A DNA stretch of 64,000 nt from Escherichia coli (lineage in GTDB: Bacteria > Pseudomonadota > Gammaproteobacteria > Enterobacterales > Enterobacteriaceae): assembly GCF_048403405.1 (NCBI RefSeq), contig NZ_CP183129.1. The stretch is one strand, 5' to 3'. Positions 10,280-13,944 of this stretch are shown piece by piece. The position numbers and the translations under genes are program-made. The notes beneath the pieces are model-generated. The model saw only the letters and a program-made list of their open reading frames with translations. It did no database searches and had not been told where the DNA came from. Each line of letters opens with the position of its first letter. The first letter of the stretch is position 1.

Positions 10280-11245
10280 ATGAGTAAACCCATTGTGATG
10301 GAACGCGGTGTTAAATACCGCGATGCCGATAAGATGGCCCTTATCCCGGTTAAAAACGTGGCAACAGAGCGCGAAGCCCTGCTGCGCAAGCCGGAATGGA
10401 TGAAAATCAAGCTTCCAGCGGACTCTACACGTATCCAGGGCATCAAAGCCGCAATGCGCAAAAATGGCCTGCATTCTGTCTGCGAGGAAGCCTCCTGCCC
10501 TAACCTGGCGGAATGCTTCAACCACGGCACAGCAACGTTTATGATCCTCGGCGCTATTTGTACCCGCCGTTGTCCGTTCTGTGACGTTGCCCACGGTCGC
10601 CCGGTAGCTCCGGATGCCAATGAACCAGTGAAACTGGCGCAGACCATTGCCGATATGGCGCTGCGTTATGTGGTTATCACCTCCGTTGACCGTGATGACC
10701 TGCGCGATGGCGGTGCCCAACACTTTGCGGATTGCATTACTGCCATTCGGGAAAAAAGCCCGCAAATCAAAATTGAAACTCTGGTGCCGGATTTCCGCGG
10801 TCGTATGGATCGTGCTCTGGATATTCTGACCGCCACACCACCAGATGTATTCAACCATAACCTGGAAAACGTACCGCGTATTTACCGTCAGGTACGGCCT
10901 GGTGCGGATTACAACTGGTCGCTGAAGCTGCTGGAACGCTTTAAAGAAGCGCATCCGGAAATCCCGACCAAGTCTGGTCTGATGGTGGGTCTGGGTGAAA
11001 CCAATGAAGAAATTATTGAGGTAATGCGCGACCTGCGCCGTCATGGTGTGACGATGCTAACGCTGGGGCAATATTTGCAGCCAAGCCGCCATCACCTGCC
11101 GGTTCAACGTTACGTTAGCCCGGATGAGTTCGACGAAATGAAAGCCGAAGCGCTGGCGATGGGCTTTACCCATGCTGCATGCGGTCCGTTTGTCCGCTCG
11201 TCTTACCACGCCGATTTGCAGGCGAAAGGGATGGAAGTTAAGTAA
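10280..11245 (+). CDS. lipA: Lipoyl synthase (radical SAM)
   Basis: 321-aa ORF with CxxxCxxC radical-SAM motif (CTRRCPFC) and second Cys cluster. Confidence 0.95.
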
Positions 11246-11274
11246 TCCTGTAATAATTACTTACATCTATCTGA

Positions 11275-11307
11275 TAAAAAACCCGCTTTTTGAAGCGGGT
11301 TTTTTTG
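11275..11307. terminator. Bidirectional rho-independent terminator between lipA and tatE
   Basis: AAAAAACCCGCTTTTTGAAGCGGGTTTTTTT: GC stem flanked by A-run and T-run. Confidence 0.8.
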
Positions 11308-11346
11308 TATCGAACAAGATATTGAGGGAGCGTCCTGCTCGCCACG

Positions 11347-11550
11347 TCACTCTTTATGAGAGAGCTTTTCAGCCTGAAGATCAACGTCTGCGCCTTTTTT
11401 CGCCGCAGCATCGTCATCATTCATCGCCTTCTTGAACCCTTTAATGGCCGCTCCAAGGTCTCCGCCCAGCGTACGTAACTTCTTAGTCCCAAACAGCAGA
11501 ACGACCAGCGCCGCAACTACCAGCAGTTTGGTAATACTAATCTCACCCAT
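11347..11550 (-). CDS. tatE: Twin-arginine translocase subunit TatE
   Basis: 67-aa ORF, single TM helix plus amphipathic region, TatA/E family. Confidence 0.9.
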
Positions 11551-11678
11551 AGATACCTTCTTGACATATAACCGGCAACAGAACGCGCCTTAAAAACCAG
11601 AGAATATTAACGGTCATTCGACGCGCGCACACAATAGCAATCTGTAACAAGGTGAATCAAGCGCCGAGTAAAAAAACA

Positions 11679-12467
11679 TCATAATAATTGCGGCGGCGCA
11701 AAGCGACGGTTGTTTAAAACGGGAAGTTGCGCGCGCACCTGACGCACACGTTCGGGCGTCACTTCCGCCATAATGAGTGCAGGCATTTCTGACGCTGCCG
11801 CAATGGTGACGCCAAAGGGATCTATAATCCGGCTTTGCCCGATATTTTTGTTCCCGCACTCCCCCGCCGCCACCATATAACAGGTGGTATCCAGCGCACG
11901 AGCGGCAAGCAACGTTGACCAGTGATGCTCTTTGAGCGGCCCACGAACCCAGGCGGCAGGAAGTACCAGGATTTCAGCTCCCTGTAATGCCTGTGCCAGC
12001 GCCAGCTCTGGAAAGCGTAAGTCATAACAGGTCATCAGACCGACCTTCATCCCTTCCACCTCCAGTAACGGAGCTATTTCATTACCAGCATCAACATGGC
12101 GTGATTCCTGAATGGCAAATGCATCATAGAGATGCAGTTTGGCATAACGGGCGACGATGTTTCCTGCCTGTAGCGCCACCAGCATATTCCATGCGCGCCC
12201 CGGCGTTGAAGGAACATGAATCGTCAGAATTGTCGTCATCATGTTACGTTTACTTTCTCGCCGTAAACGTCCGAGGAATTCGCCTTCCAGCAGCTGTGCT
12301 GATTTAACCGATAGATCTGCATCATGATCATCGCGCGCCAGCAATGCTTCCGGCAGGACAAACAGCGATACGTCGTTTTCCGCCGCCTGCGCCATCAACG
12401 AGGCACAAATCTCAGCGTTCTTTTCCCACACAGATGTAACAGCAAACTGTCCTGCGGCAACCAGCAT
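11679..12467 (-). CDS. ybeM: Carbon-nitrogen hydrolase (nitrilase superfamily) protein, apparently intact
   Basis: Uninterrupted frame of about 262 codons; ATG at 12467 with GGAGGAGG upstream (ORF track starts at GTG 12473); CN-hydrolase-like sequence. Confidence 0.75.
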
Positions 12468-12562
12468 TGCCACCTCCTCCTGTCAGAGTCGTAAAATTCG
12501 CCAACGGCGATTATTCGGCGTTACACTTATCACTCATACAAATCAAATAGCAGGATTTTGCA

Positions 12563-12946
12563 GTGTTACAACTTCTTTTAGCAGTTTTTATTGGCGGTGG
12601 TACGGGAAGCGTGGCGAGATGGCTGTTAAGTATGCGATTTAACCCGCTGCATCAAGCGATTCCGTTGGGGACGCTGGCTGCAAACCTGATTGGGGCATTC
12701 ATCATAGGAATGGGATTCGCCTGGTTTAGCAGGATGACGAACATTGATCCAGTGTGGAAAGTATTAATCACCACCGGATTTTGTGGCGGTCTAACAACCT
12801 TCTCAACATTTTCGGCAGAAGTGGTGTTTTTGTTACAAGAGGGCCGCTTTGGCTGGGCGTTACTGAACGTTTTCGTCAACCTTTTGGGGTCTTTTGCCAT
12901 GACCGCACTGGCTTTCTGGCTGTTTTCCGCCTCAACCGCACACTAA
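12563..12946 (+). CDS. crcB: Fluoride channel CrcB/FluC
   Basis: 127-aa four-TM ORF, GTG start. Confidence 0.9.
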
Positions 12947-12952
12947 AGACCA

Positions 12953-12980
12953 AAAAAAACCCGCTGATTAAGCGGGTTTT
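12953..12980. terminator. Bidirectional terminator between crcB and cspE
   Basis: AAAAAAAACCCGCTGATTAAGCGGGTTTT hairpin between convergent genes. Confidence 0.8.
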
Positions 12981-12999
12981 GAATTCTTGCTGACGTATC

Positions 13000-13209
13000 T
13001 TACAGAGCGATTACGTTTGCAGCAGAAGGGCCTTTGGCACCGTTAGTGATTTCGAACTCTACGCGCTGACCTTCAGCAAGAGTTTTAAAACCATTAGTCT
13101 GGATTGCAGAGAAGTGTACGAACACGTCTTTGCTGCCGTCTTCCGGAGTAATGAAACCGAATCCTTTGGACTCATTAAACCACTTAACGTTACCTTTAAT
13201 CTTAGACAT
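13000..13209 (-). CDS. cspE: Cold-shock-domain protein CspE
   Basis: 69-aa CSD protein ([20 protein letters not shown]...); ORF-track N-terminal extension rejected. Confidence 0.95.
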
Positions 13210-13383
13210 CAAAATTACCTTTACATGAAAAATAGACACAAATGCTGTGTCGGTTACCAGTACACCAATTGTGGTACGCTTTGTCCAGTGCAACTTTACT
13301 AAAAAGTGATAAAAGTCGCGTTATTTTTGATGTTACTTATTTTAGTTATTGATTTTAAAGAAGTTACTAAAACTTCATTTGTC

Positions 13384-13944
13384 TCAAAACTGAAAGCGCA
13401 TCCAGGCAAAGTACACATTGCCATTGTTGTAGGTACCCGGAATGTAGGTCATCTGAAAAGTCACTGGGCCATAACCCACGGAGGCCAATGGCAGTAGAAC
13501 CGGGAGAGGGATGTAATTCCAGTTATCGCGTGCCGTTACGCCAGCGGTGAATCCCAGACCTAAATGAAAATTTTCATCCGCCAGCGGTCGCCAGGTACTT
13601 TCCCATCCGTATCCGGCAATCGGTTCCCATTTGTTCCACGAGTCCTTAAATGCCATGGCATACAGGCCATGCCAGTTTCCTTTTTCATCCCAACGCGACT
13701 GACCAAAACCGCCACCCCACGGTCGCTCGTTATAGCGATCGGTTTTTTCTTTGTCGTAAGCGAAACGTGCATGCCAGGTGATGGCAGGAATATATAAATC
13801 ATAATGTTCAGGCTGTTGCCAGGTTTGTGCAATATTTTCTCTAAACGTTGTCATCCACTCATCTGCGTTAGCAAAAACTTTACCAACGCTGATTAACTGA
13901 ATAAAAACAAAGGAAAAGATAGCGACATATTGACTCACGTTCAT
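13384..13944 (-). CDS. pagP: Lipid A palmitoyltransferase PagP
   Basis: 186 aa from MNVS...; outer-membrane beta-barrel acyltransferase; 8-codon ORF-track extension rejected. Confidence 0.9.

Follow-up and report, generated by a model that had tools for sequence, protein, structure and literature searches.

Introduction

Transaminases may occasionally act on glutathione and exchange its glutamyl amino group for a keto group, which would generate deaminated glutathione (dGSH; 2-oxoglutaramoyl-Cys-Gly). The dGSH amidase repairs this transaminase side product (PMC7041631), converting dGSH to 2-oxoglutarate and Cys-Gly (PMC10452834). The enzyme would thereby recycle an otherwise useless compound, a form of metabolite repair. 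Yeast NIT2 is an orthologue of Nit1 and acts as a dGSH amidase (PMC5714238). In the secondary literature on E. coli, the role of omega-amidase is given to YafV and that of dGSH amidase to YbeM (PMC8711792, PMC8788347). In E. coli K-12, ybeM is a pseudogene and serves as a neutral insertion site (PMC7242477).

Here we describe ybeM in a window of E. coli DNA, by which we mean the whole stretch of 64,000 nucleotides that was analyzed. The minus-strand gene at 11679-12467 is, with high confidence, an intact chromosomal ybeM of a non-K-12 E. coli, encoding a 262-residue cytoplasmic dGSH amidase of the Nit1 branch of the nitrilase superfamily. Both the substrate, dGSH, and expression in the source strain are what we infer here. 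The gene is already known and widely annotated, and the copy in the window represents its ordinary, common intact state.

Results and Discussion

The ybeM reading frame and its start codon

The program-made list of open reading frames contains a stop-free minus-strand frame at 11679..12473 that is 264 amino acids long when read from an upstream in-frame GTG (12471..12473, minus strand). Like this mechanical call, the preliminary description of the locus placed the start of the gene at the GTG, and it reported an uninterrupted minus-strand frame of about 262 codons preceded by a strong ribosome-binding site. The uninterrupted frame agrees with both the list and the translation from a downstream ATG, and the ribosome-binding site can be located as the minus-strand motif GGAGGAGG (12480-12473), within a leader that reads ...GACAGGAGGAGGTGGCAATGCTGGTT... 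on that strand. The position of the start codon is a different matter. The GTG begins with the last G of GGAGGAGG, which leaves no spacer between the two, and given this overlap with the Shine-Dalgarno motif the GTG is unlikely to be a real start. An ATG (12467-12465) follows GGAGGAGG after 5 nt and opens a frame of 262 amino acids, in agreement with the length in the preliminary description. The RefSeq coding sequences of 789 nt that we compared all begin at this ATG. Among them, the copy in strain 7/2 is 100% identical to that of the window and is annotated with the same 789-nt coding sequence (WP_001305561.1). The ATG at 12467 is the true start. The span 11679-12473 given earlier is thus corrected to a ybeM coding sequence at 11679..12467 on the minus strand, consisting of 262 codons and a TGA stop codon and annotated as a deaminated glutathione amidase, a CN-hydrolase of the Nit1 type.

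Gene neighborhood

In the window, ybeM is preceded by lipA (10280-11245, plus strand) and tatE (11347-11550, minus strand) and followed by crcB (12563-12946, plus strand), after which come cspE and pagP, both on the minus strand. The order pagP, cspE, crcB, ybeM, tatE, lipA is common to K-12 and strain 7/2, and the window carries the K-12 order as its reverse complement. As expected for orthologous genes, ybeM lies between crcB and tatE in K-12, strain 7/2 and O157:H7.

Several other features were observed in this neighborhood. At 11211-11312, a strong GC-rich hairpin, AAAAAACCCGCTTTTTGAAGCGGGTTTTTTT, separates lipA from tatE, which converge on it. Several attenuator leaders in Rfam match the hairpin at sub-threshold scores, and it resembles an intrinsic terminator that acts in both directions. 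On the other side of ybeM, the Rfam cspA thermoregulator model (RF01766) matches 12952-13400 on the minus strand with 126.6 bits, covering cspE and its leader, with the 5' end of the match falling outside of the searched region; such a match is expected for a gene of the cspA family. Finally, a 47-amino-acid out-of-frame open reading frame lies inside ybeM (12074-12217, minus strand) and begins with MFLQRRGAH. The same peptide is that of a 29-bp ybeM fragment from UTI89, over-expression of which leads to filamentation, while full-length ybeM causes none (PMC6206680).

Family assignment and catalytic residues

The predicted YbeM protein matches the Pfam CN_hydrolase family (PF00795) over its full length as a single domain, with residues 3-245 aligned to positions 2-255 of the 256-position profile (E = 4e-41; 141.4 bits, gathering cut-off 23.2). 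This bears out the carbon-nitrogen hydrolase identity proposed in the preliminary description, and a more specific one is provided by the NCBIfam model for deaminated glutathione amidase (NF033621), with which YbeM reaches 451.5 bits (curated cut-off, 355), residues 3-261 aligning to profile positions 2-260 of 260. Given the sequence-level matches of YbeM to 30 solved CN-hydrolases, which constitute our structure comparison, an alpha-beta-beta-alpha sandwich fold is very likely. The highest-scoring solved structures are of the Nit1 type, namely worm NitFhit (1ems; 1.7e-29, 106 bits) and yeast Nit2 (4h5u; 1.1e-26, 97 bits), and omega-amidases score lower (mouse Nit2, 2w1v, 4.4e-22, 82 bits; yeast Nit3, 1f89, 6.4e-20, 75 bits). 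By these scores, YbeM is nearer to proteins of the Nit1 type than to those of the Nit2, or omega-amidase, type.

A Glu-Lys-Cys catalytic triad, the presence of which the preliminary description had proposed to check, is found in YbeM in register with that of NitFhit. The glutamate is Glu40 (codon GAA, 12348..12350), which aligns with Glu54 of 1ems_A; the lysine is Lys110 (AAA, 12138..12140), which aligns with Lys127; and the nucleophile is Cys147 (TGT, 12027..12029), which aligns with Cys169, all three codons being read on the minus strand. Cys147 also aligns with the sole position at which the deposited yeast Nit2 sequences 4h5u and 4hgd diverge, a Cys/Ser difference. Judging from the family, Cys147 would attack the amide carbon of dGSH with Glu40 acting as the general base, and Lys110 would stabilize the tetrahedral intermediate or oxyanion. 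Cys147 would then be left in a thioester with the 2-oxoglutaryl moiety as Cys-Gly departs, and water would subsequently free 2-oxoglutarate from the thioester.

Peracchi et al. 2017 reportedly describe Nit1 homologues that act as dGSH amidases in E. coli. Their reported finding, the curated family model and secondary citations (PMC8788347, PMC7041631) are the basis on which dGSH is assigned as the substrate. CN-hydrolases are difficult to assign from sequence only, and YbeM also gives weak matches to the NCBIfam models for N-carbamoylputrescine amidase, nitrilase and YafV-like amidohydrolase. An intact and expressed ybeM could therefore serve a physiological substrate other than dGSH, such as 2-oxoglutaramate or 2-oxosuccinamate, as in an omega-amidase of the Nit2 kind, or an N-acyl compound. 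We regard this as very unlikely. All of the alternative NCBIfam CN-hydrolase models score far under their cut-offs (63 against 410, 61.5 against 500 and 61.5 against 249), the last of these being the YafV-like amidohydrolase/omega-amidase model NF007757, to whose family YbeM does not belong, whereas the dGSH amidase cut-off is exceeded by nearly 100 bits. The higher scores of the Nit1-type structures and the division of roles between YafV and YbeM in the secondary literature (PMC8711792, PMC8788347) likewise argue for dGSH.

The K-12 lesion

In K-12 MG1655, crcB and tatE flank a 788-nt ybeM (b4581) that carries a pseudogene annotation, and the copy in another K-12 genome bears the PGAP flag 'frameshifted'. 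The MG1655 locus used to be divided into ybeH and ybeM. The preliminary description had taken K-12 ybeM to be a disrupted pseudogene and proposed an alignment to find the lesion; the annotation, the length and the alignment bear this out. The alignment, together with a Python check, reveals a single lesion in MG1655: codon 67 (CGT, Arg; 12267..12269, minus strand) has lost a G, at nucleotide 200 of the coding sequence. This middle G of the codon corresponds to position 12268 and is present in the window, which reads GGACGTTTACGG where K-12 reads GGAC-TTTACGG, so the window does not carry the K-12-type deletion allele. The idea that ybeM is intact here and disrupted in K-12 would have fallen had the K-12 gene been intact and of equal length, or had the triad been missing from the window; the K-12 gene is not intact, and the triad is not missing.

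The frameshifted K-12 product is 75 residues long and retains Glu40 but loses Lys110 and Cys147. When the missing G is restored, K-12 ybeM has a clean frame of 262 amino acids with an intact triad and differs at three amino acids (V33A, V37A and H124R). Since the restored frame is only three residues away from that of the window, the K-12 pseudogene has gathered little further change.

Frequency of the intact and deleted alleles

The ybeM locus is found in 5,424 of 5,426 complete E. coli genomes, with one product name throughout. No fewer than 1,000 public contigs carry the exact 262-amino-acid protein of the window, under the name 'deaminated glutathione amidase'. An 81-mer of the intact form centered on codon 67 is present without mismatch in 3,533 of the 5,424 genomes, and the corresponding deleted 80-mer of K-12 in 859 (15.8%). 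The remaining genomes, approximately 1,030 in number, carry other SNPs in this segment; among the matches listed, the segment spans 81 nt in these genomes and is thus undeleted, with the exception of one error-laden assembly. The deletion appears in 10 of 60 evenly spread rows of those listed. Overall, about 84% of the 5,424 complete genomes are undeleted at codon 67 and about 16% are deleted.

A few of the genomes, among them JNE21-003 and E2863, matched the locus in two pieces, which could reflect sequence inserted into ybeM or immediately 5' of it. An odd 83-nt allele in UTME-9 (L007) was set aside: ybeM, crcB, cspE and tatE are all frameshifted in this genome, which suggests assembly error.

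An identical codon-67 deletion, again flagged as 'frameshifted', is present in Escherich's strain NCTC86, in KMi006, a Japanese river-water isolate, and in 23CRST047, a human fecal isolate from Ecuador with a genome of 5.1 Mb. Because it is shared with NCTC86 and with wild isolates, the deletion is an old natural lineage polymorphism and not a laboratory lesion or an artefact. As a marker, it denotes a natural lineage.

Intact ybeM is the majority, or default, state of E. coli and a weak strain marker. The preliminary description took the intact copy as a pointer away from K-12. That reading was sound, since the window lacks the codon-67 deletion and K-12 and its close relatives are excluded, but intact ybeM tells little beyond this. 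Much stronger evidence against K-12 is the identity of the first 25 kb of the window to natural isolates, e.g. MS 69-1 and TUM1226, which is 100%. Most E. coli strains, the source strain of the window included, probably retain a glutathione repair amidase that is absent in the standard laboratory strain. Because K-12 lacks a working ybeM by nature, YbeM activity is missing from metabolic models and knockout collections built on it.

Constraint and independent losses

In pairwise comparisons between the intact alleles of the window, O157:H7, ST131 and O2:H6, the Nei-Gojobori pN/pS ratio ranges from 0.04 to 0.12. Such values are consistent with purifying selection on the intact alleles and would fit a functioning gene. 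Together with the match to the Pfam CN_hydrolase family, they indicate that the frame is not a chance open reading frame.

The gene has nevertheless been lost elsewhere in the species. The ybeM of ATCC 8739 is also a 788-nt pseudogene, and it was at first assumed to carry the K-12 deletion. This was rejected, as its frameshift is a different one: a run of five A residues in codons Lys207-Asn208, intact in the window (11845..11849, minus strand), is contracted to four in ATCC 8739 (L009:944-947). Six genomes carry the A4 allele without mismatch, three of them assemblies under the name ATCC 8739 and another that of strain PD007, and on this account we regard the frameshift as real and independent. 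The PD007 genome, at 4,641,666 bp, is similar in size to that of MG1655. Thus, E. coli has lost an intact ybeM at least twice, through distinct deletions of 1 bp, and since the gene has been lost repeatedly, it is evidently dispensable and its loss tolerated. Mice, yeast and Arabidopsis deficient in Nit1 reportedly lack an obvious phenotype (PMC7041631), which fits with this tolerance. A further idea is that the losses were selected rather than neutral, the amidase being costly or harmful in some niche, and that lineages which retain ybeM, such as that of the window, have compensated by adjusting its expression through an expansion of AGG units in the leader; we consider this idea very unlikely.

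The leader, its Shine-Dalgarno allele and transcription signals

The Shine-Dalgarno region of the window, AGGAGGAGG (12473..12481, minus strand), is separated from the ATG by a 5-nt spacer, TGGCA. Alignment to MG1655 reveals a 3-bp tandem expansion in this region, one AGG unit more than the AGGAGG of K-12, and the spacing between the motif and the ATG is the same in both. The three-unit allele is present without mismatch in 846 of 5,423 complete E. coli genomes, and all of the others among the matches listed have the shorter form (a span of 68 nt, not 71 nt).

The divergent intergenic region between crcB and ybeM is 95 nt long (listed at 12474-12562). A fluoride riboswitch was suspected in this gap, overlapping the ybeM ribosome-binding site, but a search of 11200-13400 gave no Rfam match to it at E <= 0.1. 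A sigma-70 consensus scan of 11250-12800 found no promoter-like site, and a consensus scan for terminators gave two weak terminator-like hairpins only, a number no higher than in shuffled controls. Of the divergent crcB and ybeM promoters, one or both probably reach into the adjoining coding sequence. In CFT073, NsrR ChIP-seq revealed a peak at ybeM, as did earlier K-12 ChIP-chip; the CFT073 peak lies within the gene, approximately 345 nt from its start, and ybeM expression fell to 0.30-fold under NO stress (PMC5320621).

The open frame of the window could in principle belong to a gene that is silent or impaired through poor transcription, through an effect of the extra AGG on translation, or through a substitution at residue 124. 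The absence of a promoter-like site from the consensus scan would fit with the first of these and the minority status of the AGGAGGAGG allele with the second, and ybeM is dispensable in other lineages. As for the third, residue 124 is His in the window (codon CAT, 12096-12098, minus strand) in place of the Arg (CGT) of K-12, O157:H7 and ATCC 8739. However, this residue aligns with Phe in NitFhit and with Ser in yeast Nit2, and because it varies in this way, the position is probably tolerant of substitution. The AGG insertion leaves the spacing to the ATG as in K-12, the change in ybeM expression in CFT073 is a measurable one (PMC5320621), the identical protein is found on at least 1,000 contigs, and the low pN/pS between intact alleles points to continued constraint. 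On this evidence a silent or impaired ybeM is highly improbable, and we favor an intact gene encoding a predicted dGSH amidase.

Comparison with known systems

The YafV/mammalian Nit2 omega-amidase (2-oxoglutaramate amidase) is a CN-hydrolase paralogue with the same catalytic chemistry and, likewise, a role in metabolite repair (PMC8711792). YbeM nonetheless falls outside of the YafV-like subfamily (NF007757, 61.5 bits against 249). Closer in type is the eukaryotic Nit1 family, represented by mammalian Nit1, yeast Nit2 (4h5u, 4hg3 and 4hg5) and the Nit domain of C. elegans NitFhit (1ems), with which YbeM shares the superfamily fold signature and a triad in register. The reaction assigned to this family, dGSH to 2-oxoglutarate and Cys-Gly, is the same as that assigned to YbeM (PMC5714238, PMC10452834, PMC7041631). 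The match is a distant one that shows only in profile comparison (E = 1e-29 to 1e-27), and with 262 amino acids YbeM has neither the Fhit fusion nor the insertions of yeast Nit2, the deposited 4h5u chain of which has 341 amino acids.

Within E. coli, MG1655 ybeM occupies the same locus in the same orientation relative to crcB and tatE and is 98.6% identical to the window over 1,051 nt, but it is interrupted at codon 67. The O157:H7 gene is intact. Its product (WP_000959109.1, 'deaminated glutathione amidase') is 262 amino acids long, uses the same start codon and is identical to that of the window at 261 of 262 residues, and its neighbors are likewise crcB and tatE. This O157:H7 protein probably serves as the Swiss-Prot reference for the enzyme in bacteria. 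It differs from YbeM of the window in having Arg124 rather than His124, and its leader reads AGGAGG, one AGG fewer, with a crcB-ybeM gap of 92 nt as compared with 95 nt in the window.
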